The position numbers were made by a program, and so were the translations under genes. The notes below the pieces were generated by a model that worked only from the letters and a program-made list of their open reading frames with translations, was not told the origin of the DNA and did no database searches. Below are positions 20,825-46,400 of a DNA stretch of 64,000 nt, in pieces. This stretch comes from Guillardia theta CCMP2712 (Eukaryota > Protista > Cryptophyta), in assembly GCF_000315625.1 (NCBI RefSeq), contig NW_005434590.1:275950-339949 (forward strand). The letters are read 5' to 3'. Position 1 is the stretch's first letter; each line of letters opens with the position of its first letter.

Positions 20825-21400
20825 ATAAGAATGGTAAGGAGAAGGAACAATGTTTTTTAAACATTCAACTGCCAGCTATGTTGGGTGTTGAATAACTTTA
20901 TTCGGGTGGTGCCGTTGACCCGCGGTCACCTCTAAAAACAGCCTGTTAGGATGTGATTGCTTTGAAAGCAATCTCTAATGTTTTCATTTCGAGGTGTATG
21001 CAAAGAGCACACCTCACAAAACAGCCTGTTAGGATGCGGTTCATTTAGGGTGAATAGCATGATCCACAGGGAGATCGTCAGAAAGGATATGAGAAGGGAT
21101 TAATGCTCTGTGTGCTAGCGCACACCGCCAGCGCTAGCGCGCTTGGCTATGCCACGAGCGACACTGGTGGCATCCAACGATGGTCATTGACACTACGAGA
21201 GGCACAGGTAGCCTCCAACGAGGATCAGAGACGCTCCATCTCCCCCTGAGCAGGATTCCTCTCCATCTCCCCTAATTGTTCAGATTGGTCACGAAGAAGT
21301 ACCCAGGGTACTTGGTCAGCATCCCACGTGACCAGTTCTGACATTTTTCCCTATATTTGGCATAGGTGGTCATATACGTCATATACACTTTACCGCATGC
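20825..21400 (+). repeat. Left outer direct-repeat segment X
   Basis: Start (ataagaatggtaaggagaa), internal aacagcctgttaggatgtg and the last ~205 bp are shared in direct orientation with 46401-47231. Confidence 0.88.
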
Positions 21401-21979
21401 GGCTTTTTGCTATCTAATGAGGGTCGGAGGTAAGCCCTGCGCAGCTGGGCGGTGTGCGCAGCACACAGAGCAAGGGATCCTTTGTCAGTCATCACATAGC
21501 AACCCTCCACACAATCACAAACCCTCCACAAACCCTACACAAACCCTACACACAGCCTCTCCCTTACCATTATCATCTTACTTTCTATCTATAATCTAGT
21601 CTAAATATATGTATTGTGTAGGGTGTGTAGGGTGTGTAGGGTTTGTGATGAGTTCATCAAAATAAAAATAATTTCAAAGGGGGTAACTCAAATCAAACCC
21701 TACACCCTACACACTCTCCACACTCTCCACTAACTAGTCTTCTATGTACTAGATGATGATCATGGATGTTGGCGGAGGCGCGGAGGCGCTACCCCAAACT
21801 TTTCTACATCCTTTAATCCAACCCCTCCTCGCCATATGAAATAGTTTGGGGTAACGCCTCCGCGCCTCCGCAGCCCCTCCTACCCCAACTATCACAAAGA
21901 TTCCTTAATAATTTTTCATAAATCTCTCTTACATCACATCAGGTATTCAATAGAGTATTTATTCATTCTCTCTATCTTC
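21401..21979 (+). repeat. Left long inverted repeat (~580 bp)
   Basis: Imperfect reverse complement of 45827-46398. Confidence 0.92.
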
Positions 21980-22554
21980 TCTCTATCTTCTCTCTATCTT
22001 CTCAATCGCTATCTCCATCAATGGGAACAGGGGAACATCTGGTAATTTAAGCGGAGCACCGGTAACTTACGGGAAACTAGGGGTGGTAACTTATCTGGAA
22101 CTGGGGGTGGGGTAGGTGGTAACCTATCTGAAGTGTGGGGGGTGGGGTCATATAAATACCCCCAAGCAACAGTAATAATTCCTTTGGTGGTCAGCACACT
22201 TAGAAAAGTGCTCTCTGATAATATCGTGAGATCGATTCCTACTGATTCCTGCTCTATGACCTGATGAACTGGCGGGCACCCAGTGATTCGGGAAGTGGAG
22301 TCGGATGATGGGGGGGCCGGTTGTCCAAAGCTTGACGTCCCGATGCTCACTGGCTTGTCAGTGGGGTGCCCCGTCGGGTCTGATGGTGATGGCGATCGGT
22401 CTGACCACCAAAGGCCCGAGTAGTACTCTGAACCAGCCGCAACCATACCCGTTAGCCTAAGCCGTATTCAAAATAAAAACCGGGCAATTTTGCTCGAATT
22501 ATCAAAAAAATGATGACCATCGGGCAAAAAAGCTCAAGCGCTAAATGGTACTAA

Positions 22555-23025
22555 ATGATAGAGATTAATCAACAAGTCTTAAAATGCCCCTCCACCAACA
22601 CGGACATAAATGAGATCATCTCACACATCTATTGGGAAATCAAAGAAACCTACGACGAGGTCTTCATCGATGATATTGATGATGAAGATGAGATTGAGCA
22701 ACATAAGCGTATCATAGAGAGGGATGACCAAGACCTTGACTATGAAATCCATATGGCCATTGATAACTATGTTATTGATGAGCTTGATGACAAACGCTAT
22801 GCTATCATAACACAAGGCCGTGAGCCTCTGCTTGTATTGATGGAGTACATTGAGGAGTACGGCCAACCAAACTTGGATGATGCCCTCCTTAAAGCTGAAA
22901 GACTAAGAGGCATTGTTTCTTATCAGATCATATACGAGCAAATCCAAGCCTTGTTTTGTCAAGAAACCATAACAATTGAGATATCATCTATGATGGAGCT
23001 CATAGATATCTTAGATAAGGATTAA
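22555..23025 (+). CDS. PLV hypothetical acidic protein (156 aa)
   Basis: ATG ORF with partial promoter motif aaaaaaatgatg at ~22504. Confidence 0.65.
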   Translation: MIEINQQVLKCPSTNTDINEIISHIYWEIKETYDEVFIDDIDDEDEIEQHKRIIERDDQDLDYEIHMAIDNYVIDELDDKRYAIITQGREPLLVLMEYIEEYGQPNLDDALLKAERLRGIVSYQIIYEQIQALFCQETITIEISSMMELIDILDKD

Positions 23026-23069
23026 ACTGACAAGAAGAATAATATGTATCTATATTTTAATATTGCTCA

Positions 23070-23084
23070 AAAAAATGATATAAA
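23070..23084 (+). promoter_or_regulatory. PLV promoter motif AAAAAATGATATAAA (also 28562-28576, 28884-28898, 29209-29223 on +; 47008-47022 on -)
   Basis: Five exact 15-mers, each about 23-60 nt upstream of an ATG on the same strand. Confidence 0.8.
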
Positions 23085-23995
23085 GGATTGGCATATATAA
23101 CCATCAAACCAAAAAGAATAAATATCTAAGCCTATATCAAATAGATGGCACGCGAACGAAAAGCTCCTGAGTTGTTCAAACCAACCAACTTCAAGGCTAC
23201 GGCCAAAAAGGCTCCGGCACGGAAGGCTCCAATCCAGCCTACAAATGTCGTTCGACCAGTTCGACCTATTACTGTTCAACGAGCATCGCCAGCCGATGTC
23301 CCAGTCTTGGCTGCCATCCCTATCGACGAGCCAGTTCGACCATCCAGGAAGCCTGTTGCTAAGGAACCGCCAACCGTGGCTGCTGCTTCATCATACTCTA
23401 AGAAATATAGGCATCCAAAGGACTACAAGGATCTTAAAATGGTCAATGACCAGATCACAAGAGATATGAATCTAGCTGTTCATAATGTTGTATTCAAGAG
23501 ATATAAAGATGATGAACTCGACTTCACAATCTATGACAAGGCTTTGAAACTACAAACATCTCTTAGCCCATTCAATGGCCCAAACTCCTGGACGAGCAAG
23601 GTTTGCGGTCTCGACTACAAACCATCACAATATGACAGCCTACCATATCTTAACAGGCCTACACTTGCCGAGATCAAGGACAATGTCTATGTTGGCGAGA
23701 AATTGAGTGATTCCAAGACCGCATCTAATCTCAACACTATCATTAAGACAACGACTGCCCAAGTTGACCCCAATGATCTAACAACCGTCTTGAAGCACCA
23801 CAGACAGATCATCTTGGAGATGCTCCTTTATGCTCAGGAAAACAAGAGGTCACCAAGCACATACTGGGACTATATAAGGGCCTTGACAAGGCTTGCGAGG
23901 ATCTGCCTCGGTGATGATAACGAGCTTTATAAGAAGCTGGCTAAGCTCGGAGATGACTTTGACAAGGCTGTCATCAAGAACATTGAGACAAAGAA

Positions 23996-24922
23996 TGTTG
24001 AAGTTCCCAGTAACCTTCTCTCCACAGACGGTGACACAGTCACAGTAGCAGTGACACTCGAAGTAGACAGTGATAGCACCGACTGCAAGTTTCTGTAGCA
24101 GTGGTAATAGATATCACGAATGGCCGCGCAGGAATGATATCAGGATACAGAGAACAAACGGAGGTGATAAGAGATTGGTATAGATGGTCAAGCTTGTTTA
24201 CTTCAAGCAATCCAGTCTCACAGAGACCATACACCTCGTTCTCCTTTCCCTGTCCTGCCAATGCGTGCGGCGCTTCTTCCTCTTCCTCGGTCCCTAAAAT
24301 AGGGGCTGCCCGGTCCTAGGAACTACCACTACCGGTACTCTACGCTTCTTATCTGCGATATGATTCTTCGACCGGTCCGAGGCCTGGTTCCGTACCTTGA
24401 GGGTCCCCTGAGAAAGAGTCATAGGCTTGACATGACGAGGTTTTCGATTCTCATCCAACGCTCTCTGTGAAGTTGATGTAGCTGCTCCCTTGACCTTGAC
24501 AGGTCCTGTGTCTCCGTAGGAGCATGCTTGGAGGTGGTCTCGTGCATTCCTTGTATGTCCTCCGCTAAGATGATCATGATAGTACTGTCTTCTTTGATCA
24601 GACCCCTTGTTCTCCCATGTCCATGACTTCAGGGGTGATACTTCCAATCTCCCCTTGAGCGTAGCCGTATTCTGCCACCGTGACGGTGTCATCTGCTGTC
24701 CTGTCGTGGACTGATATAAGCTGACTCGCTTATCTCCTGCTGCCATCCACGAGTCCTAAGTTCTTGCTGTCTTCTTCATGATTCTCCTACGTCGTCCTTA
24801 TTGTAGCTGTTGCTGTCCTCTCCAGGGATGCATTCCGAGGCTCTAAGCATCTGTGCACTTGAGCCACGTCGATTACTTGGCATTGTCTGAGGTGAAGCTT
24901 CCTCCTATCAGGTGCTTCAACA
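23996..24922 (-). repeat. 3' LTR of the Copia-derived element
   Basis: No differences seen from 26601-27527; the spurious ORF translations are identical. Confidence 0.95.
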
Positions 24923-26600
24923 CCCTCCCTTGGCTCTTGTGTGCCGATGCCAGCATTGTTACTTTGCCGCGCCTCCATTGACGGTGTCAGGCTTGTCAAA
25001 TTTGACTATGCCTTTCAAATGACCTGCTGCGGTTGACTCTTCGCGCGTCGTCGCCGCAGTATTCCCTCCCTTGCCTAGAGTAGGCGGGAGCTGTTGCTTG
25101 ACAGCAAGGTGGGCTCATGCTTGGTCTCTGGTCGTCTGCCTTGAAGCTGTATGGTTGCTCATCAGACTTGATATTCCTCTTTCCATAAGCGATCAGCCTC
25201 TTGACTTGACTTTCGCAGTAGGGCTGTGCATGGTACTGAAAGGTTCTCCTCAGCGCCCATCAGCACTGATGTGCCTGGCGACTTGGGACCTCCTTCATTT
25301 CTGCAGCATCATTTCATAACTTCGATCGAAGGTATGTCTTCATCGTCTGCTTCTTCGTCTTGCGAAGGCTTGGCGCTTCAAGCTGCCTTTCATTTCTTCA
25401 ACTCTGCTGTAGAGTTGGTTCGTCACAGTGTCATCACGTCGCCATCACAATATAGTGGCTTGTAACGAGGCTTTGGGACGTCTCCCTTCCTCGGTCTTCA
25501 CAACCTTCAAGCTTTCATCTGCCGTGCTCTAGGCTTGCCGCTTCAATCATCGCGGTGCTTGACCAGTGGAATCATGAGGTAACCCGGTCCTCTCCTCACT
25601 GTTGGCCACGTACAGGCTTTGAGGTTGGATTGAAAACAGCTCTTGTCACTTTTGACATTCAGAGCAACTTTGATCAGGACTGATCCCTCCATCATCGAGA
25701 TTTTCTCGCTGTCATGTCACCCCTCAGCTTCTTTGCCACACTCATCATCATGGTGGGAGAGCTATCTGGTGGCCTCGTCGTCATCTTGTGCGACTCCTGG
25801 CTCTGCTTGGCCCGGGGATCCCTGTGACTCGTCCATGTCACTTGACATAGGGATGATGCGAGGCTCGATGCTGATGTCATCATCAGATGTTCTCAGAGGT
25901 TCAGCCTGTCATGAAGTTCAGTATTCAGGTATGATAGTGAAAAGATATGATATTCCCTGATTTTGATTGTTCATTTAGTGAACCCTCCCTGACTGTCTCT
26001 GGTGTCGAACAGATGACCTCAGGCTGAAGTGGGTCCCCTGTGACTTCGCATCATCCATCTCCCTCCCTGACGAGGTGCAGGGAGCTTGGCTAGCTTGACA
26101 AGGTCTTGCATGAAGCAGCGGCGTAATGATGGTCAAACGGAGACCTGAGACATGTCGTTGCCGAACAAGAACGATGCTAGCTGACGAATTTTGGAGACTG
26201 GGCAGATCTTGGTGAGAATGTCCGCAGGGTTGTATGTAGTAGAAATCTTCACAGCGATGATTTCGTTTTCATCCACACTCGTTCGAGTGTACGGTGAAAA
26301 ACGGATTGAGCGTACCCCACATTTCTTCCTCCGTCTTAAAAACATTGTTGCCCGAATTTTCCTTAAGCTTAGTCAGGTCGATACTTGTTTTTGAGAAAGC
26401 TTCATGAATTTCCATTGCCATTTTGATATCAGAACCCATGTTTGACTCCAGGCTCAGCTGTTACTACCGTTGTCACTCCACAGATACTCTCCAACTGATG
26501 TCACTCCGAATGTGAGAGTAAGAGTCCACTGGTTGCCGTGATACAAGGTTTCTCGAGAAATAGAATATCTAGGCACTGATATTCTAAAAATTTTAGAATA

Positions 26601-27527
26601 TGTTGAAGTTCCCAGTAACCTTCTCTCCACAGACGGTGACACAGTCACAGTAGCAGTGACACTCGAAGTAGACAGTGATAGCACCGACTGCAAGTTTCTG
26701 TAGCAGTGGTAATAGATATCACGAATGGCCGCGCAGGAATGATATCAGGATACAGAGAACAAACGGAGGTGATAAGAGATTGGTATAGATGGTCAAGCTT
26801 GTTTACTTCAAGCAATCCAGTCTCACAGAGACCATACACCTCGTTCTCCTTTCCCTGTCCTGCCAATGCGTGCGGCGCTTCTTCCTCTTCCTCGGTCCCT
26901 AAAATAGGGGCTGCCCGGTCCTAGGAACTACCACTACCGGTACTCTACGCTTCTTATCTGCGATATGATTCTTCGACCGGTCCGAGGCCTGGTTCCGTAC
27001 CTTGAGGGTCCCCTGAGAAAGAGTCATAGGCTTGACATGACGAGGTTTTCGATTCTCATCCAACGCTCTCTGTGAAGTTGATGTAGCTGCTCCCTTGACC
27101 TTGACAGGTCCTGTGTCTCCGTAGGAGCATGCTTGGAGGTGGTCTCGTGCATTCCTTGTATGTCCTCCGCTAAGATGATCATGATAGTACTGTCTTCTTT
27201 GATCAGACCCCTTGTTCTCCCATGTCCATGACTTCAGGGGTGATACTTCCAATCTCCCCTTGAGCGTAGCCGTATTCTGCCACCGTGACGGTGTCATCTG
27301 CTGTCCTGTCGTGGACTGATATAAGCTGACTCGCTTATCTCCTGCTGCCATCCACGAGTCCTAAGTTCTTGCTGTCTTCTTCATGATTCTCCTACGTCGT
27401 CCTTATTGTAGCTGTTGCTGTCCTCTCCAGGGATGCATTCCGAGGCTCTAAGCATCTGTGCACTTGAGCCACGTCGATTACTTGGCATTGTCTGAGGTGA
27501 AGCTTCCTCCTATCAGGTGCTTCAACA
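26601..27527 (-). repeat. 5' LTR of the Copia-derived element
   Basis: Direct repeat of 23996-24922. Confidence 0.95.
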
Positions 27528-28608
27528 GAATCAACTCAACATAGACGAAGAGAGAAACTTCTTACCGTATTCATACCTGTTGAATATGATCGATGATATG
27601 GAGCAAAAATACCTTGAGGCAAAAACTAGATACGGTCCACAAGGCTATCATACATACAAGCTACATATGAACACTTTGATCTTAATGTCATATCTGTATA
27701 CGCCACCCCTGCGTTTGGAGCTATCTAATGCCCGCTTCACTAAGACCCTAAGAAATTTAGAACCAGGCAAAAACTACATATACATTCCGCAAAATGGCAA
27801 ACTGGTCAAGTATGTCCTGAATGAGATCAAGAAGAAACACAAACCAATCGAATATGATGTTGGATATCCTATGAATGATGATCCTTTGGCAAAGAGGCTT
27901 ACCGAGTTCATCAAGATGTCCCTTCGTGAGTATCCAAGGGAATACTTCATAACCCTTTATACTGACAAAAATAAGCCAGCTAAAAAAGCAATGACAACAT
28001 ATCTCTCAAGTATGTTCGCTGACCATTCCTTGAACGTGAATATGTTCCGCTCTTCCTACGTGAGTTGGTTGTACTCGAACAATGTTAGCACGAATATATT
28101 GGAAGAAGTGGCATTGAAGATGCGAACAAGCATCTTGACGTTTATGAAGAATTATAAGAAGCTGAATTCTGAACAGATTAGGGTCAAGAGGGAAAGAGAT
28201 GATGATAACAGACCTATTACAATCAATGAGGCGGATGATTCACCAGCGGCTCGGGGGCCTGTCGCAAATCCTATTGCTGCCATTCCACAACCACAACCAA
28301 GACAACCCCATAAGGAGTACAAAGACCCTATCGTCTTAAGACGCGCCAGGGTGAACCGTTACATTGAGAAGACAGGCGGTAGAGAGGCCTTCAATGAGCG
28401 ACAGAAAAAGTACTATAAAGAGAACAGCAAAACTCTATACATCAAGAAACTGTTGAGGATGTACAACACCACCAAGGAGGCAATAGATCCTATCCAACAT
28501 ACCATAAAGAAGTATAAGCTCTACAAGGAAGGGAATGAATGGAAATCTCTGGAGCTTGGGTAAAAAATGATATAAAACAGATATGATAAATATTATATTG
28601 ATAGAGTG

Positions 28609-28875
28609 ATGTTCGACTTGACTTTCTATGATAAAGTCCTTAAATGGTCCGATGAGTTGTCTATAAAACCAACACATAGCAGCGTATTATCTCGTCATCA
28701 AATGTGGTGTCTTAAAAAACGAGGGGATTGTGGTGGAAAAGATCACAGAGATATGGTCAATGATAGATTGTTTGGTCGGTACGTTAAGAGTTGGATGATT
28801 TACTTTGATATGTCATTAGACAAGATACATAATCCAAAAATGCCTTTGAAAGTGATTGGAATTGATAAGATATAA
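28609..28875 (+). CDS. PLV small hypothetical protein
   Basis: ORF downstream of promoter motif 28562. Confidence 0.6.
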   Translation: MFDLTFYDKVLKWSDELSIKPTHSSVLSRHQMWCLKKRGDCGGKDHRDMVNDRLFGRYVKSWMIYFDMSLDKIHNPKMPLKVIGIDKI

Positions 28876-28926
28876 AAAATGAAAAAAAATGATATAAAGT
28901 ATTTAGCAATAATATTATATGATCAT

Positions 28927-29142
28927 ATGAATAAAGAAGAAAAAAAAATGAGCGCATCATTAGAATGGTATTATAAAAAGAGAGAGAATGATCCTGAATA
29001 TGTTCAGAAAGAACGTGAACGTAAGAAATTAGATAATCATAGAAGATATCATTCATCTGAAGAGGAACGACAAAAACAAATTAAAAGATCTCTTGATAGA
29101 TACTATAGAATTAAGGCCCAAAAACTGGCCATCGTTCAATAA
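28927..29142 (+). CDS. PLV small basic helical protein
   Basis: ATG 28 nt after promoter motif 28884; Lys/Arg/Glu/Tyr-rich. Confidence 0.6.
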   Translation: MNKEEKKMSASLEWYYKKRENDPEYVQKERERKKLDNHRRYHSSEEERQKQIKRSLDRYYRIKAQKLAIVQ

Positions 29143-29263
29143 TTCATACAGTTTTTTTGAAAGCATGCTATATTTTACTATTTGTTCTCATTTTTTGTGT
29201 TTTGCCATAAAAAATGATATAAAGATTTCAGCCATAAAATTATCTAACCTAAGAATAAAGGCA

Positions 29264-31588
29264 ATGAACGGTTCAAGCGGTTTGAACAATTACCACTATC
29301 TTTTGAAGAAAGGCTTTGCTTTGACAGCTGTCCACCCCCGCAAGTATGAGGGCGATCGGTTTGTCAAGGGAAAGATCGACGGAGTTGATAAGCCTTATAT
29401 TGATGCTGGTTGGACTAAACAAGAAGTTAATGAGGGGAATGCTTCGGTAGTCTACAACATTATCAATGACAAACCATTCTATGCTGTCCGAACTGGTGAG
29501 ATATCAAACATTATCGGCGTTGACATCGATAGTGACAAGGCTGAAAAAGATGGTATCCCTCGCTCTTTGGAGTTTGAGGAGTGGTGTAAGGCTTCTGGTA
29601 CATATACCATCAAGTCCCCACACGGATATCATTTCTATTTCAGATATGATAAAGATATTAGTAAGAGCGGATCGATACTCGATCATATTGACATTCAATC
29701 AAATGACAAGTGCCTCTTTGCTCCAAATGTCAAACGGGTTGATGGTGTGTATGAAGTCATAAATGAAGCACCTGTAAAGGCAATGCCTGATAAAGTCAAG
29801 AGCTTTATTCTTAAGCATAAACAAACCAGAGATTGTGGGATGGCTGCCAAGCAAGAGAAGGCACCCGAAGCACCCGTCAAAGGTCCTAAAAGTTCAGATG
29901 GGGATGCTGAGGATAGTGAAATAGATGTTGATGATGTTAAAAAGTTGCTCAACCTCATCTCTCCTGATTGCGATTACAATCGTTGGATCAGGGTCCTCGC
30001 GGCAGTCAACAACACTCTCGGTTCTAATGATAAGGCCTATGATATCACCGATGAATGGTCCTCAAAATCTATCAAATATGACCCAAGATCATTTGGTCGT
30101 ATTTGGAACTCGGTAAGGGGCTATGAAGAGATTACAATTGGCACCTTACATCACTATGCTAAGGAAGAACAACCTGAACAATACAAGGAATTATTTGCGC
30201 ATAAAAAAACGAGCATACCAAGAGTTGATATCAGCAAATTGAGGAAATATGAGGATATCAAGGAAGCTTTTGAAAAAGATACGTTTATGGTTTGTATCCC
30301 TCCCGTATATTTTCATAAAAATCGCTATGGTGATAAATACACAGTTGTGAAAGAGGATGGCATCAAACAGGCATATAGGCATCTCAGGTATATCAAGAAT
30401 GTCGGAACAGATAATAAGGGTAATATCAAGACAAAAGAAGCAAGCTTCATCACTGACTGGGTTTCCGACCCTGATAAACGCGTTTATGAATCAGTGAAGT
30501 TTGATCCAAGCAGGAAAATAGATTCTGATATATTCAATACTTTCACTGGATTTGAGGCCGAAAAACATCCCGAAATTGATGAGACGCTTATGATGGAATT
30601 GGTACAACCATACATTGACCACTTTGATATGCTCTTTGGCAGTGATGCTAGAATATTCGTTATGAAATGGATGGCGAACATCATCCAAAATCCAACTCAA
30701 AAATCTGGTGTTTGTTTGCTTTTGAAGAGTGAAGGAGAAGGTTCCGGAAAGACCACACCATTTGAGTATTTCGGAAGAAAGGTGATTGGAAACAATCATT
30801 ATAAGAACACCAGTGACCCAGAAAACGACCTCTTTGGTAGATTTGCTACTGCGATTCACAACTCATTGCTTGTCCAACTTGAAGAGATTAAAGGTGTCGT
30901 GTTTCATAAAAACGCTAGTACGTTTAGAGATATGATAACCAAGAATACAGCACGATGGGAGGTTAAAAATGTCACTGTCAAAGACGATGATGAGAACTTT
31001 GCGAGCTTTATATTAACCACCAACAATGAGAACCCTATAACTGTCACTCCAACTGATAGGCGCTTCTGTGTACTAAATGTAAATGAAGCTATGATTGGGA
31101 ATGTTGAATACTTCGAAAGATTTATTGAAGTGGTAGAACATCCGTCTTGGGGCAGGGCGTTGTTTCAATATCTTAGAGATTTGGAAGGCGTGCCAAAGAA
31201 CATCGCCCAATTCCAAAACCAAAGATATAAAAGCGAGGCTTATGATGATATGCGAAAGCAAAACATCCCTAACTGGGCCAGGTTCTTGATCAATAAGGTG
31301 ATGCTCAAAACTTCTCTCATCAAGAACAACTCTGTTGAAATCAAACCAACAGAAGATGTAAAAGCTAGTAAATTATATGATGAATACGTTCAATACTGCG
31401 AGAAGACACGTGTTGAAGCTGCGACAATGAAACAGACTGGATTTGCTATAAAGATTAAGTCTGTTGAGGGGATCATAAAACAGAGAAGTAGATTATGTTG
31501 TAATTATACGATTGATTGGGAAGCTGTTGAAAAATGGCTTGTCAAAAAGAATTACTGGGATGATGATAATATCACAGTAGAGATATAA
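29264..31588 (+). CDS. Primase-polymerase + PriCT-2 + SF3/D5-like helicase fusion
   Basis: GVDIDSD and SPHGYHFYF (Prim-Pol); DYNRWIRV...DEWSSKS.KYD...ITIGTL (PriCT-2); GEGSGKTT, VQLEE, TTNNEN, DRRF (helicase). Start placed at ATG 29264, after the promoter motif. Confidence 0.9.
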   Translation: MNGSSGLNNYHYLLKKGFALTAVHPRKYEGDRFVKGKIDGVDKPYIDAGWTKQEVNEGNASVVYNIINDKPFYAVRTGEISNIIGVDIDSDKAEKDGIPRSLEFEEWCKASGTYTIKSPHGYHFYFRYDKDISKSGSILDHIDIQSNDKCLFAPNVKRVDGVYEVINEAPVKAMPDKVKSFILKHKQTRDCGMAAKQEKAPEAPVKGPKSSDGDAEDSEIDVDDVKKLLNLISPDCDYNRWIRVLAAVNNTLGSNDKAYDITDEWSSKSIKYDPRSFGRIWNSVRGYEEITIGTLHHYAKEEQPEQYKELFAHKKTSIPRVDISKLRKYEDIKEAFEKDTFMVCIPPVYFHKNRYGDKYTVVKEDGIKQAYRHLRYIKNVGTDNKGNIKTKEASFITDWVSDPDKRVYESVKFDPSRKIDSDIFNTFTGFEAEKHPEIDETLMMELVQPYIDHFDMLFGSDARIFVMKWMANIIQNPTQKSGVCLLLKSEGEGSGKTTPFEYFGRKVIGNNHYKNTSDPENDLFGRFATAIHNSLLVQLEEIKGVVFHKNASTFRDMITKNTARWEVKNVTVKDDDENFASFILTTNNENPITVTPTDRRFCVLNVNEAMIGNVEYFERFIEVVEHPSWGRALFQYLRDLEGVPKNIAQFQNQRYKSEAYDDMRKQNIPNWARFLINKVMLKTSLIKNNSVEIKPTEDVKASKLYDEYVQYCEKTRVEAATMKQTGFAIKIKSVEGIIKQRSRLCCNYTIDWEAVEKWLVKKNYWDDDNITVEI

Positions 31589-31611
31589 TTAGATTGATGG
31601 TTAGTCTTTCC

Positions 31612-31827
31612 CAACCCTACACAAAATCACAAACCCTACACAAACCCTACACACTCTATTTTCCTTACCATAACAATGTCATTATATTATTTTATTTAGT
31701 ATAAATAGACACTAGTGTGTAGGGTGTGTAGGGTGTGTAGGGTTTGAAATGAGTTGAGGGAAATAAATAAAATAAAAAAAAGGGTAACTCATTTCAAACC
31801 CTACACCCTCCACACCCTACACACTCA
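31612..31827. repeat. Internal copy of the ACCCTACAC iteron module (putative replication origin)
   Basis: Same forward-reverse-forward repeat layout and spacers as ~21500-21730. Confidence 0.75.
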
Positions 31828-31930
31828 GTAACAAATATAGAATGTTTCCTATAATAATCTTACCATCTCAGTCACATAATAGGAAATGTGGATAGTTTTG
31901 ATGAAAAAAAACAATCTCCCAACAATATAA

Positions 31931-32254
31931 ATGAGCAAGTATACCTATGCCTCTCTCTCTCCATCTCAAGCAAAGCACAAGAAGTACAAGTTAGTACTCT
32001 ATGACAAAGATCAGAAGAGGATCAAGACTGTTCAGTTCGGTGATAGTCGATATCAGGACTTCACACAGACCCACAATGATCAACTTAGGAAGTACTACAT
32101 AGCGAGACACGATAACGGTCGTGAGGATTGGTCGGTCCCTGATACCCCCGCATCCTGCGCAAGGTGGATCTTATGGGATCAGTACACAAAAGAGAAAGGA
32201 TTTGAGAACTACCTCAGGCGATTCCACTTGAAGCGCCTAGATCTGTCTGACTAG
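31931..32254 (+). CDS. Tlr6F-like (DUF5754-like) protein
   Basis: KHKKY...TVQFG..RYQDFT..H....R..Y..RH...ARWILW pattern typical of this PLV/virophage/giant-virus family. Confidence 0.8.
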   Translation: MSKYTYASLSPSQAKHKKYKLVLYDKDQKRIKTVQFGDSRYQDFTQTHNDQLRKYYIARHDNGREDWSVPDTPASCARWILWDQYTKEKGFENYLRRFHLKRLDLSD

Positions 32255-32780
32255 GATGGTTAGAATAGCCTCCGAGTATATAAGGAATATATCTATGTTT
32301 AGATATGACAGACCCCATATTACTCTTGATGAATTCTGGGATCCCATTCACAGACTCCATAAGAGTGTCATAAGACTGGATGTAATTATTCAGTTTGTCG
32401 GAACTAATATCCCTATTAGTTAAGGTCTGTTCAATGCTATGCTCTAACTTACTAAATTTGCTTGCGAGGTCGTAGTACAAACTCGCTTTTTCACTTATCT
32501 TCAATTGGCTATTTACACCTATTAATACAGCCGTGACCGTATTGAAAACGATATTTATAATTCTCATTATTTTATCGTCCTGAAAACTGCCATTTAAGAC
32601 AGCAAGTGATGATGATAAGATGATCAATGGGATCATAACTATCTGCTTCCACAGATTATACCATCCCGCGGTTCTATTACATAGGATGCTCATGATCCTT
32701 GCCATCTCTTTGTACTTCTGCCATAGCTCGTTCTCATTGCTTTCAGTTCGTTCCAGTCTGACATTGATGTCAGGCATCAT
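32214..32780 (-). CDS. Two-transmembrane (SLATT-like) protein
   Basis: Two hydrophobic helices (IVMIPLIILSSSLAVL; IINIVFNTVTAVLIGV) followed by a helical cytoplasmic tail. Confidence 0.6.
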   Translation of the reverse strand: MMPDINVRLERTESNENELWQKYKEMARIMSILCNRTAGWYNLWKQIVMIPLIILSSSLAVLNGSFQDDKIMRIINIVFNTVTAVLIGVNSQLKISEKASLYYDLASKFSKLEHSIEQTLTNRDISSDKLNNYIQSYDTLMESVNGIPEFIKSNMGSVISKHRYIPYILGGYSNHPSQTDLGASSGIA

Positions 32781-32981
32781 TGGTCCTTATATATACATTA
32801 GAAGAATATTGGAAACCTTGTAGTGTCCCATCAGCGGCCACATACTGCCTTCCCTCCATAATCAATCTAATGCTATGATTCAACGCATCCAGATGCTGTC
32901 GATTGTGTACTGAAGATATTATTTTTTCGTTGGCCATCCATCACTATAAGAATAGTCTAAAAAAAAGATAAGACGTGATGA

Positions 32982-33221
32982 TCACAAGCGTCGAAGCTGA
33001 TTTTCCATATTCTGGGCCTTCTCCAAGCCATTCTGAACCAATCCAACACCTTGGACAGCCTGCTTACTCAGCTCATTGATCTTTGCCCCTAAAGGGTGCT
33101 GTGTCAGTTTCCCTCCAAGCTCACGGTTGACGGCAGATCCAATCCTTCTAGCCATCACTAGACCTTGTCCCAGTCGCCTAGTGAAATTGAGTGCCTGTCC
33201 TAGTCTTGATGTAAGAGCCAT
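32982..33221 (-). CDS. Small basic amphipathic protein (possible virion core protein)
   Basis: 79-aa ATG ORF with repeated RLGQ, at the end of the structural block. Confidence 0.6.
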   Translation of the reverse strand: MALTSRLGQALNFTRRLGQGLVMARRIGSAVNRELGGKLTQHPLGAKINELSKQAVQGVGLVQNGLEKAQNMENQLRRL

Positions 33222-33314
33222 ATTCTTTTAACTATAGATAGATTTTTTTATAACCTTTTCCGCTTTGCGCAAAAGCTTAACCAAAAACAGCGGCGCCGGG
33301 GGCCGCAACCCCCG

Positions 33315-34166
33315 CTAATTAATGTTCATATACTGAGTTATGATCAGATACAGTTCCTGGAGATAGTCAACGATCCTCATCAATAATCTCAAAACCTTCT
33401 CTTGATAGATATTTGAATCATTCTTTACTTTCTCGAACCTAAGGTGTAAGAAGAAATCATTGAATCTTTCGAGAGTTCTATTTTCCTCATTCGTTAGCCT
33501 AAGCGTAAACTGATCGATTGTATCTGATTGAGTGTTTATTATAGACCTCCATCTGCTATCATAAGGAGCTTCATAATTGATAAGAGAATTGGGTGCTTGA
33601 TTCACGACAAATGAAAACAATATATCGTTGGGATAGAACTGATCGGTCTCGATATTTGCTAATCCACTCTGATTCAGCCCAATATCCCCATCGATCCTCA
33701 TAAATATAAGCTGATCCGATGTCATATTGATTGGGAAATCGCTATACACTCCATCAGTTGTAATAAGGATATCCTCATCATTGTTGAATCCTAAGAACTG
33801 TGAGCAGTTGACACACCTAAGAGTGACATTGTTTCCTGTATTGCTAGCAAAAAACCACTTGTTAAGCCTTGGAATATATGACACATCTATCTTTTCGTTC
33901 AGCTTGGTCTTGAGCTCCTCCTCCAGCTCATATATATTTGGGTTGCCCTCATCAAGTCTCACTAGAACATCATCAATCATAATAGTATCGTTGTAACCAT
34001 ACTGAATGTTCTTCCAAGAAATCACAGACTGGAACGAGACAACTGAGACTACCCACGACTGATTTCTTTTGCTTTGAATGTAACTGTTTGGGAGGTTGAC
34101 CATAACAACACCACTCGATTTAATACAGTTCTTCGAGTTAATGAAAAGATTAACCGTGTCTTCCAT
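33315..34166 (-). CDS. Minor capsid (penton-like single jelly-roll) protein
   Basis: LFINSK, NI..G.ND, GNPNIYEL and terminal F.LRLTNE...F.L.L.F patterns typical of PLV minor capsid proteins; position in the structural block. Confidence 0.75.
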   Translation of the reverse strand: MEDTVNLFINSKNCIKSSGVVMVNLPNSYIQSKRNQSWVVSVVSFQSVISWKNIQYGYNDTIMIDDVLVRLDEGNPNIYELEEELKTKLNEKIDVSYIPRLNKWFFASNTGNNVTLRCVNCSQFLGFNNDEDILITTDGVYSDFPINMTSDQLIFMRIDGDIGLNQSGLANIETDQFYPNDILFSFVVNQAPNSLINYEAPYDSRWRSIINTQSDTIDQFTLRLTNEENRTLERFNDFFLHLRFEKVKNDSNIYQEKVLRLLMRIVDYLQELYLIITQYMNIN

Positions 34167-34195
34167 TGAAAGCTACTTTTACAATAGTCAAATAT

Positions 34196-37100
34196 TTAAA
34201 GTATCTTAGTGATCTGCTCAGGGTCCCAATCCCTTGTATCCTCTTGTGTCTCTTGTTCCTCATCATAGACGATGAAATTGAGCAGCAGCTCGTCAAGATC
34301 TGCCTTTGTGCCATCAACAAGCCTCAAGCTCAGCCTCTGGCCGCCTTGAAGCAGCCTATCATTTACCTTGAAGTTCTTTTGGAACTTATAAGATGAGTTC
34401 TGATAGGTGCTTGTCGCATTGCTTTCTACCACAGTTGGTTGGATATCCAAAGCAACATTGTATATCCTTAGATCTTTGAGCTCACCGATGAATTCTCCGA
34501 TGACAAGCCCATCAACAAGATCGGCGGTGATAGCCTCTGAGCTATCGATTACAGTCTGTTCAACGCCATCGATGTATATCCTATTGACAGCCTGATCATT
34601 GGTGAACGCATAGTTATGCCAGAGGCCATCATTGATATATCCATTTGTGACAACCGAATAATAGTTGATTGAACTGTTCAGCTTGAATTCAAGATCGCCT
34701 GTGTCCTTCCCGCGAATCATTAGTTTATCGGTCTCATCACGCAATATAGTATCAACCCCAATACTGTTATAACCTGTAATCTTCAAATCAAAGGATATGG
34801 TAAGCCCAGTCTGTCCCTGACTGATAATGTAATATGGCACCTCAACAGAAGTAGACCTAGTCTTATCGGGTGTATCATCAAAGGATTGTAACACATAACC
34901 ATAGGGGCTTACCTCTGTGAATGTGAAATCATTGTAATATACCTCTCTTGTGTATTGAAGGACGACATAGCCATTGATTCCATCGGTCCCATTGAATCCA
35001 CCCTTTCCGACATCAGTGATTGGAGTGAATGGCAAGGGATCGGTAGGAGCTCCACTGGTTCCACCTGATGTGCTCTTGCCTGCTATGCCTCCTTTGTGGT
35101 CTAGCTTAGTCACTGCTGAGTGCCCCCAGTAGGAGGACCCACCACCACCACCAAAGAAAATTCCACCATTATATCCCGCACCACCACCGCCCCACCAACC
35201 AGCCCCGCCTCCATTCCCATATGAAGAATTAGCATCACCACCATAGAACTTACCTCCAATGTTTCCATCATTCATAGCATCACCAGCAGCTCCCCCTGCT
35301 GTCTGACCTCCACCGCCTCCGCATTTGATATCTCCATCTTTTCCTTTCCCACCATCTGCTCCTGTTCCATCATCCCAAGGACTGCCCTTCCCACCTCCAC
35401 CGCCAGCACAAACAGTATCTCCTGTGGTAAGAAAACTAGCATATCCCGAACCAGCACCACCACTTCCAGCAATTGCAAGAGCGGTGCTCGTGTTACCAAC
35501 CCTGTTGCTAGTTATTCCAATACTTCCACTAAAAAGTCCAGTCAACCCACCACCACCTGCTCCATGATCACCATTTCCATCGCCTCCACCTGTCCAAGCT
35601 GGATTATTCACTCTGCCACCCTGCCCAACCAACAACTTGATATCTGTCATATTTGTAACATCGACCTTACACTTCAAGAAAGCACCACCGCCGCCACCAT
35701 AATGGATATCACTGAATGTTCCTCCGCCACCACCAGCCCCCCAAACATAGGCCGTGATCTCGGTGACTCCCGAGGGAACTGACCAAGTATAAAGCCCATA
35801 ATCTGTGCCTACATCTGTTCTTGTGTCATCATACGTGAATGTCTCAGTGAAGACTGTCATTTGCTGAAAGTATTTTTGAACCGATCCAGTGTATAGCTCA
35901 GAGACTTGGTCGGCTGTCAGTTCTGTATTGTAGATGCGGAAGTCATCAACAAGACCATCAACTTGTTGTCGTACATCATTGAATCCACCTGAAATGTAAT
36001 AGACATCTCTTTGTCCTGCTAATGGATACTTTGCTGATGTGGTTGTATATTTAGAGACATTATTTACATATATTCGAATCGTAGCACTAGAATAACCACT
36101 AGCATCTCGTACAGAAGTTTGTTTAACATTTAAAACAATATGATTCCACGAATTATATGTATATAAATCATTGGCGCTTGTATTGCTATAAGGAGTGTCT
36201 GTATAGAATACATAATAAATTAAGTTTTTAATAGTACTGTCTGAGAGCAAAAGAAAGCAATTTCTGTAACTATTATCCAAGTCTTGAAAATCGAAAAGTA
36301 TTGGATATCTATTATCACCAGCACCTTTCATATAGACCCAAAAACTGACTGATACAGCTGTGTTATTATCAAACAATGTAGCAATTGGGTCACCAGCCTG
36401 TACATCCATCTCGCAATAACTAATATCACCAGCAACATAGTTCATATCCAGCGCTCCATTTCCCTTAACAGAGCTTGATGTGATTGTTGGATAATTTCCA
36501 GTGGTCCCCTTCCTCTTTAATCTAAGCTTTATCTGATTTGCGCTGTGATCAATGAAATAATTGCCATTGGCATCACTCTGTAAATCTTCTTGTTGGAACT
36601 TATACCAGACCAATGGATCGATATCATTCCCTGAACCATCCTTCAATACTACATAACCATTCTTAACGAATCCAGAGGGTAAGGCACTGACTCCATTGCT
36701 ATCTTTCAAGTCAATGCTTCCAGCTGTTGAGAAATCAATTGTGTAATTGCCAGAAGATGTTATGTTGTATGTGTTGGGCAACGTTGTATCACTAGGGAAT
36801 GTTAATTCATCGCCGATCCTTAGATAGGTTGTTGTTGTAGTGTTGATAGTCTCTGCTGACCAGACAAAGCTCTGATTCAATGGTATCTGGTTAAAGTCAT
36901 AATTATTGACACTATCAACATAGTTGTTGTTGAAGCTGTACTTTGCTATCAGATCGGTCTCGGGATACTGATAAGCAGAAGATGTTGAGGAAGCAAAGAT
37001 AGGAATAGCATAAAGCAAGGCTCCAAGACTAGACTTATAGAAGCTGTCATAAGCGTCTGTATCATCAAGGAACTGGTCAGCGTACAGCTTGATGTAGTTT

Positions 37101-37273
37101 TGCGATGTGTTCTTGGCCTGGACATTGTTCAAGACTATCCTGGCATTCTTTGATAGGACCTGTTGATTGGGCAGATTGAGATTCCAAGTGACAACATCTG
37201 ATTTGGTGCTTACATCATCATTAAGATCAAGATGTAAATCAAATATCTTTTTAGGTTTGAACAGTGATACCAT
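34196..37273 (-). CDS. 1025-aa putative spike: capsid-like scaffold with inserted LamG-like and glycine-rich domains
   Basis: N- and C-termini align with the 177-aa neighbour; LamG motifs SVSFWV, WNHIV, DDFRIYN and LWHNYAFT, DLRIYN; VWGAGGGGG...GGGGSSY Gly-rich domain. Confidence 0.8.
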   Translation of the reverse strand: MVSLFKPKKIFDLHLDLNDDVSTKSDVVTWNLNLPNQQVLSKNARIVLNNVQAKNTSQNYIKLYADQFLDDTDAYDSFYKSSLGALLYAIPIFASSTSSAYQYPETDLIAKYSFNNNYVDSVNNYDFNQIPLNQSFVWSAETINTTTTTYLRIGDELTFPSDTTLPNTYNITSSGNYTIDFSTAGSIDLKDSNGVSALPSGFVKNGYVVLKDGSGNDIDPLVWYKFQQEDLQSDANGNYFIDHSANQIKLRLKRKGTTGNYPTITSSSVKGNGALDMNYVAGDISYCEMDVQAGDPIATLFDNNTAVSVSFWVYMKGAGDNRYPILFDFQDLDNSYRNCFLLLSDSTIKNLIYYVFYTDTPYSNTSANDLYTYNSWNHIVLNVKQTSVRDASGYSSATIRIYVNNVSKYTTTSAKYPLAGQRDVYYISGGFNDVRQQVDGLVDDFRIYNTELTADQVSELYTGSVQKYFQQMTVFTETFTYDDTRTDVGTDYGLYTWSVPSGVTEITAYVWGAGGGGGTFSDIHYGGGGGAFLKCKVDVTNMTDIKLLVGQGGRVNNPAWTGGGDGNGDHGAGGGGLTGLFSGSIGITSNRVGNTSTALAIAGSGGAGSGYASFLTTGDTVCAGGGGGKGSPWDDGTGADGGKGKDGDIKCGGGGGQTAGGAAGDAMNDGNIGGKFYGGDANSSYGNGGGAGWWGGGGAGYNGGIFFGGGGGSSYWGHSAVTKLDHKGGIAGKSTSGGTSGAPTDPLPFTPITDVGKGGFNGTDGINGYVVLQYTREVYYNDFTFTEVSPYGYVLQSFDDTPDKTRSTSVEVPYYIISQGQTGLTISFDLKITGYNSIGVDTILRDETDKLMIRGKDTGDLEFKLNSSINYYSVVTNGYINDGLWHNYAFTNDQAVNRIYIDGVEQTVIDSSEAITADLVDGLVIGEFIGELKDLRIYNVALDIQPTVVESNATSTYQNSSYKFQKNFKVNDRLLQGGQRLSLRLVDGTKADLDELLLNFIVYDEEQETQEDTRDWDPEQITKIL

Positions 37274-37307
37274 TGTGACTGGTATATTTATAAAAAGAAA
37301 AATATTA

Positions 37308-37841
37308 TTATTTCAACCAATTAGGCTGGTTCGATTTGTTAGAGATAAGCTGATCAGCACTCCAAGGTCCCGTATCTTTTTGTAACTCGATCTCCTCGTC
37401 GTAAACCACGAGGGTAAAGAAGAGCTGTTCAATATCCACCTTGGTAATGTTCATAAGATTGATGCGAAACTGATTGGTTCCTGATAAGAAGTTCTCCTTA
37501 CACTTCCAGTTCTTTGATATCTTTGGGTTATAGTTTTGATATGAGACAGTCGCGGCATCTTTGCCAACATTGAATAGCACAGCACCATAGATGCCATTGC
37601 CCTTGCTATCAAATGTAAGGGATGTATCAACATCATTTGTATACAGATAGACGATATCTGTTGTGTCAACCTTCTTGATATATAAGGAATCCAATACAAT
37701 CCTAGCATGTTCAGACAGGATTTGACCGGTTGGATTCTTGATCTGCCAAGTTAGAGTGGTAGCCGAATCGCTGGTCTCTTGTACATCATTGATATCGAAG
37801 CTGAGGTGTATCAATTTCTTAGGCCTGAAAAGTTTAGGCAT
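37308..37841 (-). CDS. Putative small beta-rich structural protein (minor capsid-like), paralog of the 1025-aa protein termini
   Basis: Shared LF.PKK, LS..ARIVL, GA.L, YQN....KN.K, VYDEE and DT..W motifs. Confidence 0.75.
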   Translation of the reverse strand: MPKLFRPKKLIHLSFDINDVQETSDSATTLTWQIKNPTGQILSEHARIVLDSLYIKKVDTTDIVYLYTNDVDTSLTFDSKGNGIYGAVLFNVGKDAATVSYQNYNPKISKNWKCKENFLSGTNQFRINLMNITKVDIEQLFFTLVVYDEEIELQKDTGPWSADQLISNKSNQPNWLK

Positions 37842-37860
37842 TTATATAACTGGCATATTT

Positions 37861-38169
37861 TTATTCGATCACCTCGATGCCCTGAACTATGCCACTGATT
37901 TGATCAGCCTTGTCCTTCATCTCTTCGATCTCTTTCTTCAATTCTGGATCCTTCTCATAGTCTGGTTCGGTCTTATCTGGATGGTATAGATAGTCAAGAC
38001 AGGCTGTATAGAGGATTGATGGGGGGATGTCTGGATACATCTGGCTGATATTGTTCACCATTTCCATTGCCTCCTTATGCTTCCTGTCTCTCTCCTCCTC
38101 CTCCTCGATCTCTTGGAGCTGCTGTGAGACGTCGATGAATTCACTTCCGGTCATCTTTATTATAAGCAA
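37861..38169 (-). CDS. PLV hypothetical protein
   Basis: Tightly packed ORF downstream of the ATPase. Confidence 0.65.
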   Translation of the reverse strand: MLIIKMTGSEFIDVSQQLQEIEEEEERDRKHKEAMEMVNNISQMYPDIPPSILYTACLDYLYHPDKTEPDYEKDPELKKEIEEMKDKADQISGIVQGIEVIE

Positions 38170-38172
38170 CCA

Positions 38173-39084
38173 TTAAAATTCTAGGATTCTATCCCAACAT
38201 CTCAAGAAGTGGCCACCATCTGGGCACCTAGGGTGGTTGTTTACGGTAAGCCAGTTATACTTCTCTTCAATACAGTGTTCATATAATTGTTCAAACACCT
38301 CTGGTTTTACTAGGCCGCTGATCTCGTCATATATACCTTCCATAATCACCTTCTTGTTCATACATCGATATATCATATACACATCGATGTTGTTTCGTAC
38401 GATCTTTGGGATGGATTTGAGATTTTGAGTTGTGAATATCATATTGATGCCGTAATGCCTATGCTTGATTAGGAAGTTGCTAAGCTTGTTGTTCTTCTTT
38501 GTGTTGAAGGCCTTGTTATCTGAGATGAGATCATCGAAGACAAAGAACACCACAGGTGGCTTCTTGTATTTAAGATTGCCAAAGGCGACATCAGGCTCTT
38601 GGAAATCGTACTTATAGAGCAATTCAAGTTCATCCATTGTCAATCTGTCTTCACCGACCTTCATCCATCTGCTATAAGCCTTCTTATACTGATCATATTC
38701 CTCTATGTCCTTCTTTATCTGCTGGACCTCATCAATCTTCTCTTGGAGTTTATCCTCAGAATACTCATCAACAACATCATTCTCAAGGTCTAGCTGCTTG
38801 ACTGTCTCTAATATGGTATTGGATTTGCTCTGGACGGTAGGAGAGAACCACACCACCTTGATATCGATCTTCTTGCTATCCTCTGGGTCATAGAACGGGT
38901 ACTTTTCATAATGGTGGAATAATTTCGCTATCCCGAATGTTTTACCGCAATTCTTAGAGGCTACCGCAAGTATTGAACAGTACACAGGAGGCAGGAAAGG
39001 ATTATCGGAAGTTGGAAGCTTATTCTTCTTGTAAGGTTTAGGCTTGTTATCTAGCAATGGTATCTGGTGCTCTGTTATATCCAT
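38173..39084 (-). CDS. A32-like (FtsK-HerA) genome packaging ATPase
   Basis: Walker A ASKNCGKT, Walker B FFVFDD, RHYGINMIFTTQ, IPKIVRNN. Confidence 0.93.
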   Translation of the reverse strand: MDITEHQIPLLDNKPKPYKKNKLPTSDNPFLPPVYCSILAVASKNCGKTFGIAKLFHHYEKYPFYDPEDSKKIDIKVVWFSPTVQSKSNTILETVKQLDLENDVVDEYSEDKLQEKIDEVQQIKKDIEEYDQYKKAYSRWMKVGEDRLTMDELELLYKYDFQEPDVAFGNLKYKKPPVVFFVFDDLISDNKAFNTKKNNKLSNFLIKHRHYGINMIFTTQNLKSIPKIVRNNIDVYMIYRCMNKKVIMEGIYDEISGLVKPEVFEQLYEHCIEEKYNWLTVNNHPRCPDGGHFLRCWDRILEF

Positions 39085-39163
39085 TTACTAATTGATAAGA
39101 AATTAGTAATAGCTAGGCCTTAGCAGATCACTAACATAATTGAGGCGTTCCTGGTTGACCTTC

Positions 39164-39643
39164 TCACGCAATCGTTCGTTGATCGCGTTCAAGGCTTGTT
39201 AATCTTCCAAGATTTTTATCATCAGAACCATGGTGGGGATAGCGTGGCTCTGAGCGTTTGACTCTCCTAACCACAATCTCCTCATCGCTCTCTTCTTCGT
39301 CATCGCTCTCCTCGATAATGATCTTCTTCTTCTTCTTAACAATCTTAGATACCTTGGGCGGATCATTTTGCTCCTGTGCTGGTTCGACTGGTTTAGCAAC
39401 GAGCTTTTCCACAGTCTTATCAAACTCATCACCTTCCTTCTTCAAGGCCTCCATTTTGATTAATTTGTTAAACTTGCTCTTTTGATTCAACTTAGCTTTT
39501 TGCTTTCTTGCTTCCTCTGCTTTGATGCGCATTAATTTGAGACGTTCCAAAAGTTCTGGCGAGCACTCCTTTTTCTGCTTGGTGACCACCTGTGCTTGTT
39601 GGTCAACATCTGTCTCTTCAATGACCTTCGGTTTTCTTCCCAT
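39164..39643 (-). CDS. Lys/Glu-rich PLV protein
   Basis: ATG 39643, MGRKPK...LERLKLMRIKAEEARK...KKKKKIIIEESDDEEE. Confidence 0.7.
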   Translation of the reverse strand: MGRKPKVIEETDVDQQAQVVTKQKKECSPELLERLKLMRIKAEEARKQKAKLNQKSKFNKLIKMEALKKEGDEFDKTVEKLVAKPVEPAQEQNDPPKVSKIVKKKKKIIIEESDDEEESDEEIVVRRVKRSEPRYPHHGSDDKNLGRLTSLERDQRTIA

Positions 39644-39681
39644 TTGTAAGAAAGTAAAGAAAAAAAAATTACTTAAATTGC

Positions 39682-40026: not shown

Positions 40027-40062
40027 TCTTCTTTTAATCTAATGCGAGATTATTTAGTCTAG

Positions 40063-41560: not shown

Positions 41561-41607
41561 CTTTGCTTTTAAAAGACAGACAGAAAAAAAAATAAGATTT
41601 CAAATTC

Positions 41608-42417: not shown

Positions 42418-42441
42418 TTATCTTATTGATTGAAATTATTT

Positions 42442-45516: not shown

Positions 45517-45536
45517 TTAATTAGAATGAAGATTAA

Positions 45537-45770: not shown

Positions 45771-45826
45771 TTATACAATATCAATAAAATAATCTGAGTG
45801 GGGGTTCCGCCCCCCAACGGCGGTGG

Positions 45827-46398: not shown

Positions 46399-46400
46399 TT

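Follow-up and report, generated by a model that had tools for sequence, protein, structure and literature searches.

The window analysed here comprises 64,000 nucleotides of the cryptophyte Guillardia theta CCMP2712 (contig NW_005434590.1, positions 275,950 to 339,949) and contains an integrated polinton-like virus (PLV) at 20825..47232, 26.4 kb long including a 3.5-kb nested insertion, as recognised from gene content and from its junctions compared with empty host units. A module of short tandem repeats is found three times in this element: once in each of its two inverted repeats (IRs), and once directly behind the gene of a primase-helicase (29264..31588, plus strand; 774 aa, or 807 aa from the first ATG at 29165). 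On comparative grounds, the module is probably an internal replication origin, of the kind known from plasmid pRN1 and from staphylococcal pathogenicity islands (SaPI), and the predicted target of the winged-helix-like tail of the primase-helicase. A check proposed along with the original prediction of such origins, the search for the word downstream of helicase genes elsewhere, was run, and ties the module to the same helicase superfamily in virophages and phages.

The repeat module and its three copies

The repeated word, ACCCT(A/C)CAC, has 26 copies in the window, all within three clusters, at 21502-21712 (n=9), 31614-31822 (n=9) and 46090-46297 (n=8); 100 shuffles of the window contain 0.64 copies on average, and 3 at most. 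Repeat counts and positions bear out the claim of a module of about 220 bp, present in both IRs and behind the primase-helicase gene. Copy L, also indicated as cassette 1, is located at 21502..21727 on the plus strand (nine repeats, 7 with TAC and 2 with TCC); copy M, the candidate replication origin, at 31614..31827 on the plus strand; copy R at 46086-46299, inside the right IR. The distance of about 25 bp given for the middle copy is also correct, 25 nt separating the end of the helicase frame (31588) from the start of the first repeat (31614).

Each module starts with three or four forward repeats, followed by a spacer of 70–78% AT and by three reverse repeats, TGTG(T/G)AGGG; after a gap of 55-56 nt (72–76% AT), two or three forward repeats close it. 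In the middle copy, three reverse and three forward repeats flank a gap of 76% AT, and three further forward repeats are present upstream. The 3' half of the module is an inverted repeat of about 115 nt with an A-rich loop of about 28 nt; in the middle copy it occupies 31711-31826, about 120 nt past the helicase stop, and reaches -67 kcal/mol when folded as RNA. Left and middle copies are identical at 172 of 214 positions, left and right at 200 of 214, middle and right at 159 of 213. The spelling CCCTCCAC is used by 8 of 8 repeats in the right copy, 2 of 9 in the left and 1 of 9 in the middle one, which corrects the earlier description. Searched by blastn against phages, the module gives short, weak matches only. 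GC skew tracks gene strand.

The first AT-rich spacer of module M carries the motif CCTTACCA (31663..31670, plus strand). Its five exact copies in the window correspond to one in each module (L, M, R) and one at the start of each of the end segments of the element, A-L and A-R; it may serve as a priming site or as a recombinase half-site.

The position and folding of the block might also suit a transcript-end hairpin, either terminator or polyadenylation signal, of the helicase gene. The block sits past the stop codon, and the 250 nt behind the helicase fold at -76.7 kcal/mol, compared to -30.6 to -70.9 for 19 other element genes; hairpin signals at transcript ends are a feature of mimivirus-associated elements. 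Yet the left IR copy follows no gene, and the word is kept in bacterial phages, which have a different transcription machinery. A hairpin, moreover, needs pairing, not a fixed tandem word with unpaired upstream copies, and no Rfam family was matched by the module. A transcript-end signal is therefore very unlikely.

A common host repeat had been named as a finding that would speak against an origin. The surroundings of the element are rich in host repeats, and its split recombinase and capsid genes are signs of decay; the copies could thus be repeats of the host, or products of slippage and duplication that have no function. Yet none of the 26 copies is located in the 37.6 kb of host flank of the window. 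Host abundance was judged by read depth on contigs rather than by a genome-wide count: in sequencing run X1, whose comparison covers the element except its right half, depth is single-copy-like for the middle copy (81-109) and its adjoining sequence (78-92), far below the 330-2300 of the nested long terminal repeat (LTR) element. Such an explanation, at odds also with the concerted respelling of repeats and the cross-kingdom helicase linkage reported below, is largely refuted and hardly credible.

Association with helicase genes in other genomes

IMG/VR was scanned with the tandem word alone, blind to genes; as control, the letters of the word were permuted, leaving its composition and period unchanged. 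The word gave 44 loci and the control 36: the permuted word being equally frequent, the raw count is meaningless, and it is the genomic context that separates the two. An exact inverted copy within 160 nt is present at 35 of the 44 loci, a D5/NrS-1-type helicase within 4 kb at 22, and at 15 the word is found within 300 nt behind a helicase stop, while all three features are absent from the 36 control loci. Helicases were recognised by profiles seeded with the window protein and with four homologues (P0001-P0004), iterated over the pooled open reading frames (ORFs) of all sets. When loci are grouped by sequence cluster, in a hand count, a helicase is near in 12 of 22 clusters and the word directly behind its stop in 9, compared to none of 23 control clusters. 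For the right-IR spelling alone, 24 loci were found, 14 with an inverted copy, 15 near a helicase and 8 directly behind it. A metagenome scan for the module-shaped pattern gave nine loci, seven beside a D5-type helicase, four of them one sequence.

The helicases of 30 adjacent loci form 19 clusters at 50% identity. Module-bearing records include virophages (with Sputnik-type capsid genes in L008, L022, L029 and L104), PLV-like contigs bearing an A32-type ATPase, and phages. Several contain the module twice or more (L008/L013, L015/L016, L021-L023, L024/L038, L036), so that multiple copies are not peculiar to this PLV. The word is found behind helicases with PriCT-2, with unrelated N-termini (presumably TVpol-like) and with none; since it accompanies helicases of differing N-termini, the shared C-terminal part is indicated as its reader.

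The same observation bears on an alternative in which the repeats, while still replicative, would be priming sites for the PrimPol domain on melted DNA, not winged-helix binding sites. Priming by ORF904 of pRN1 occurs at GTG (PMC4234260), that by NrS-1 polymerase at GTG/GTGG and TTTGGTTA (PMC8718748); the words described here start with GTGT or GTGG, and the reverse complement of the spacer motif, TGGTAAGG, resembles the NrS-1 site. CTTACC, furthermore, is found within 90 nt upstream of the tandem at 11 of 19 NrS-1-type loci and at none of 58 others, with a background of 5%. Yet the word is also present behind helicases without a PrimPol or PriCT-2 match, and behind helicase-only genes accompanied by a separate TOPRIM primase gene (L032, L043), while in pRN1 a GTG mutation in the stem-loop did not abolish replication (PMC4234260). 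Priming sites thus appear an unlikely explanation of the repeats.

The association was also evaluated starting from genes. Sixteen helicases were chosen irrespective of the word: four from a contig scan with P0003-P0005, which gave 4 loci, and 12 phage records hand-picked for diversity among the 80 rows listed (L124 and L125, coming from motif records, were excluded). A generic inverted-array detector was applied to them and to 120 other ORF ends, ends holding the motif being excluded. An inverted repeat array is found behind the stop of 8 of the 16 helicases and at 11 of the 120 other ends; with a stricter cut, the numbers are 5 of 16 and 3 of 120. The words found behind these helicases are variations on a single theme: GTGTAGGG (phiadh), GTGCAGGG (Mcat6), GTGTTGGG (Presto), GTGGA(G/T) (LP-030-2) and GTGTCTAC (L122). 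In the phiadh record (AJ131519) a rep_origin is annotated directly behind the primase-helicase, and the same stretch carries GTGTAGGG. A weak additional case is a contig of sequencing run X7 (depth 3.1), where the end of a related helicase gene is joined to an IR-type module.

Other arrangements were also observed. The module may precede the helicase gene, 240-960 nt upstream of it, rather than follow it (L013/L042, L030/L031/L037/L038, L089). In some phages the tandem word is located at the contig end, close to terminase genes, in a stretch devoid of helicase genes (L001:4655, L011:4443, L003:207, L009:6001, L020:3011), possibly as a detached origin or because of a use in the packaging region. 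A DUF5906 search of 18 records, mostly without a nearby helicase, gave 3 matches, amounting to 3 of 5 near-complete records, with a model that misses D5_N types. A search for family B DNA polymerase (PolB) in 15 motif-bearing records gave no matches, the controls being equally silent, and is therefore uninformative.

The primase-helicase and the proposed origin function

The primase-helicase is composed, in this order, of a PrimPol-type N-terminus, a PriCT-2 domain, a superfamily 3 (SF3) helicase of NrS-1/D5 type and a winged-helix-like C-terminal domain (about residues 696-761). Its Pfam matches are PriCT-2, DUF5906 and VapE-like. As a correction to the earlier PrimPol label, Pfam Prim-Pol is not matched by the window protein at E <= 0.01: the primase assignment rests on PHROG primase families and on the closest homologue, P0001 (50–54% identical), which carries Prim-Pol. 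No TOPRIM match is found. The structure model, built with 19 sequences (predicted local distance difference test, pLDDT, 77.7), superposes on the helicase part of NrS-1 polymerase (Z 26.7, residues 328-751) and on SaPI5 PriRep (Z 19.2, 372 residues), through residue ~750. A profile of 146 C-terminal domains, compared to the tails of 28 D5_N-type helicases, scores HH 98% (E 1e-13), while the reversed control scores 0.4%; three of those tails match Pox_D5, one of them also RFX, and an Atlas comparison of the domain agrees with a Pox_D5/RFX-type tail. Homology and secondary structure thus point to a C-terminal winged helix. A homologue, P0002, shares a primase half 55% identical to that of the window protein, while its helicase is of D5_N type, a domain swap which makes it a candidate reader of a different origin word.

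If the module functions as in SaPI and pRN1, the C-terminal domains of the primase-helicase would bind the 9-bp tandem repeats on both arms, and two hexamers would load facing each other. The A-rich centre would then melt, or the inverted repeat would extrude as in the pRN1 model, and synthesis would be primed by the primase of the enzyme itself, which would make a terminal protein unnecessary.

A number of results weigh against this interpretation. The word as such is not enriched over its permuted control, and its raw count was dropped as evidence. For 29 of the 44 loci the word is located elsewhere than directly behind a helicase, and at 22 a helicase is missing from the surrounding 4 kb; contig fragments are frequent among these, and five are beside terminase genes or in their clusters. 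Among the helicases chosen irrespective of the word, 8 of 16 have no module, K300 and ZP6 included: since half of them score none, the link is strong, not universal. The gap between facing repeats, 55-56 nt here, is 62-93 nt in 59 of 62 measurements elsewhere. In scans with the window helicase or close alignments, no relative was found in viral or metagenome contigs, which leaves the DNA around the closest relatives (P0001, P0010-P0022) outside the comparison. The C-terminal domain, folded alone, reaches only pLDDT 38.5, and a comparison of wing residues with the word gave no rule linking them. Finally, on the contigs of X1, a run that may stem from the source of the window, the unique parts of the element have an even depth of about 80, single-variant-like and with no sign of amplification.

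Yet neither a lack of helicase linkage elsewhere nor a host repeat, either of which would have contradicted initiator-binding origins, was found; comparison thus gives the origin reading good support. Phage P4, put forward as its model, is not the closest one: pRN1, SaPI5 and phage phiadh are closer.

The IRs contain a second array. Cassette 2 of the left IR (21772..21871, plus strand) features two GCGGAGGCG-type repeats and, at a distance of about 65 nt, two inverted copies that face them; in the right IR all four repeats are respelled GGAGAC. Both cassettes are composed of 9-bp tandem repeats in a facing layout, with different words. A scan for the cassette-2 word gave six loci, GC-rich, of bacterial type and unrelated, none of them with a helicase, and is uninformative. 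Left and right IRs differ by 37 substitutions: six fall at one position of the repeat in 6 of 6 aligned TAC repeats, and four at one position in 4 of 4 cassette-2 repeats; no difference is found in the 64-nt spacer between the respelled repeats. Such concerted respelling is not what independent neutral change would produce; selection acting on a binding word would, as would conversion between the repeats. The IR modules probably arose when the origin behind the helicase gene was duplicated into the IRs, where selection for binding would still act on them. In runs X1 and X2, contigs join IR sequence across cassette 1 (21499 to 21767; 21535 to 21743), which suggests that sibling IRs without cassette 1 exist.

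A broader reading, rather doubtful at present, would see the IRs as interchangeable arrays of origin cassettes. Helicase gene and origin would move as a unit, with the origin copied beside the older cassette 2; co-resident elements with different helicase tails would fire each other in trans, and an ancient word, GTG(T/G)AGGG, would be read by a superfamily extending from tailed phages to virophages and PLVs. Hints in this direction are the geometry of cassette 2 with its other word, the joint respelling, the contigs across cassette 1 and the swap in P0002.

The integrated element and related replicons

The PLV occupies one unit of a 3.3-kb host tandem repeat, and a 2-bp GC is common to both junctions. 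Its ends (~20824 and ~47232) were set by comparing the flanks with empty host units at 50552 and 53868. The left end segment, A-L (20825..21403, plus strand), is a direct repeat of the right one, A-R (46400..47232, plus strand): the 5' ends are alike and the last 210 bp are 96.7% identical. A-R carries a GIY-YIG nuclease gene (46481-46984, minus strand). The left IR (21401..21980, plus strand) is 91% identical to the right one (45827..46398, minus strand), which holds cassette 2 (~45937-46040) and module R. Since the host junctions are outside the direct-repeat end segments and the IRs inside them, the IRs are subterminal and do not constitute the element ends.

A tyrosine-recombinase-like gene (23145..28563, plus strand) is split into two pieces (23145-23996 and 27526-28563) by a nested LTR element (23995..27527), which has identical 928-bp terminal repeats, is high-copy in the host and contains a 1.7-kb interior with no long ORF; its insertion in the recombinase gene is likely recent, and the element non-autonomous. 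The recombinase-like gene has no Pfam match; intact homologues are 608-708 aa long and include cryptophyte proteins, and its putative identity comes from conserved R, K, R and Y positions and from PMC4642659. For an intact element, excision and circle closure by the recombinase would take place at the outer ends rather than at the IRs.

In each end segment, GGTAAGG is found near the 5' end and CTTTACC near the 3' end. A circle closed at the shared GC would feature two 11-bp imperfect arms around a 6-bp spacer, in a layout similar to a tyrosine-recombinase site. Loose contig ends at 21402 in runs X1 and X2 suggest other insertion sites of this element end. A 30-bp inverted copy of the outer part of the IR, at 21104-21132 within the left end segment, is perhaps a rearrangement scar.

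The module could, in principle, belong to this recombination system, as an accessory (arm-type) or resolution site of the tyrosine recombinase: two copies are in IRs near the ends, and CCTTACCA is confined to the three modules and the starts of the end segments, at whose 3' ends CTTTACC is found. Yet modules L and R are about 680 and 930 bp from the host junctions, which do not contain ACCCT(A/C)CAC, and in phages and virophages alike the word is found behind helicase stops; among the recombinases that those loci may carry, no relative of the present one was found. A recombination site is, on balance, improbable.

PLVs measure 15-40 kb and have long inverted repeats; the element agrees with this, at 26.4 kb and with subterminal IRs of 580 bp at 91% identity. 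The major capsid protein gene is present as two overlapping frames (40063..41560, minus strand), split by mutation or sequence error. A double jelly-roll major capsid protein is indicated by Atlas look-alikes (0.97-0.98), in whose clusters Capsid_N or Capsid_NCLDV is found on 10–18% of members, the capsid protein itself having no Pfam match. The packaging ATPase (A32-like; 38173..39084, minus strand) matches Pox_A32 below the cut-off (E 0.0035) and the Zot family (E 9e-8). Fibre-like proteins and a SLATT-like protein are recognised by Pfam among the other genes, while 33315-34166 is a minor-capsid candidate by size only, with no Pfam or PHROG match. Directly past the middle module, at 31931-32780, are two convergent genes, one for a DUF5754 protein and one for a SLATT-like membrane protein with two helices. 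With both recombinase and capsid genes split, this copy looks immobilised.

The host array (47230-64000 and 19787-20824) is made of 3.3-kb units, of which three run in one direction and three in the other; every unit contains an ORF of about 630 aa giving weak AAA/STAND NTPase matches. A chromodomain-bearing Ty3/gypsy retrotransposon, in several frames, is located at 14596-18827.

A PolB frame had not been noticed in the element, and a hidden Markov model check agrees: none of the 22 scanned element ORFs matches a DNA polymerase family in Pfam. The largest unassigned gap, 575 bp, leaves no space for such a gene, and all 9 stop-free frames of at least 250 aa belong to other genes. The Maverick/Polinton combination of protein-primed PolB and RVE integrase is absent as well, with no Pfam match in the 22 ORFs. 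Plasmid-like replication of this PLV, also proposed originally, is a weaker claim than the origin itself: it would require a circular form, PolB absence has long been known for PLVs, and the recombinase and capsid genes of this copy are split.

Many PLVs and virophages have no protein-primed polymerase, and their replication start sites have so far only been hypothesised, in the IRs. According to the text available of Barth et al. 2024 (PMC11296320), PLV inverted repeats are hypothesised to be the origin for the primase-helicase ("replicative end module"), and a repeat longer than 300 bp is shared by the terminal inverted repeat of Gezel-14T and the region behind its end module. In that text no iteron word or origin layout is named; the present analysis breaks the shared segment down into its repeats and places the recombination ends outside the IRs. 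Replicase mosaicism is discussed in bioRxiv 10.64898/2026.10.13.758929, in the available part of which the word "iteron" does not occur. A literature search retrieved no description of iterons in PLVs or virophages; supplements and older phage-origin papers were outside its scope, so that a prior description is possible.

Bacterial and archaeal precedents make the design less surprising; PolB-less PLVs have been known since 2015, and the IRs had been hypothesised as origins. What is new is that one word extends from phages to virophages, as set against a negative control, and matches an annotated phage origin; the respelled copies and second cassette in the IRs are new as well. The sequence (115-220 bp), its defined word with natural variants in spelling, and the domain of 110 residues form a set that can be examined jointly. 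Should the origin reading be true, a search with 18 letters would locate origins in phages, virophages and PLVs alike, and the turnover of their replicons could be traced at the DNA level.

Among known systems, phage P4 is the one originally invoked. It has a second element, crr, and its origin is away from the gene end. Its alpha protein acts as primase and helicase and binds repeats of the origin through a winged helix (PMC4234260), as proposed for the PLV protein, but the P4 primase is of TOPRIM type, unlike that of the PLV.

The G. theta PLVs described by Yutin et al. 2015 (PMC4642659) share their make-up with the present element, which may be one of them: integrated and PolB-less, they have an AEP-SF3 (archaeo-eukaryotic primase) primase-helicase and a distinct tyrosine recombinase, split in one of them by an LTR retrotransposon; no origin is described in the text available.

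Phage phiadh of Lactobacillus offers the likeness of a rep_origin directly behind a primase-helicase gene, where GTGTAGGG, the same word as in the PLV, and GTGTATAG variants face each other across an AT-rich centre. Unlike the PLV, it is a tailed phage with a D5_N-type helicase and a single copy in the stretch covered, and its origin status is that of a record annotation.

In SaPI (Rep, or fused PriRep5, with its ori), iterons directly behind rep oppose each other around an AT-rich centre and are bound by a winged helix (PMC9371898). The PLV features the same elements: repeats 25 nt behind the gene, at least two opposing repeats on each side of an AT-rich centre, and a fused primase-SF3 helicase, whose C-terminal winged helix is predicted by model, profile and Atlas comparison, but not by the domain folded alone. 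It differs in being a eukaryotic virus with capsid genes, in its 9-bp tandem repeats (5-6-mers in SaPI), in having two AT-rich stretches and two extra copies in the IRs, and in a helicase closer to that of NrS-1.

The origin of the Sulfolobus plasmid pRN1 is a 100-bp stem-loop behind a PrimPol-SF3-winged-helix gene, and its authors propose that such origins recur in phages such as BIP-1 (PMC4234260). The PLV shares with it the type of protein and an inverted repeat of comparable length (about 115 nt) shortly past the gene. The pRN1 origin, however, has no iterons, structure rather than sequence being conserved, while in the PLV the arms are made of tandem repeats, extra copies are present upstream of the stem, and the word is conserved across distant elements.

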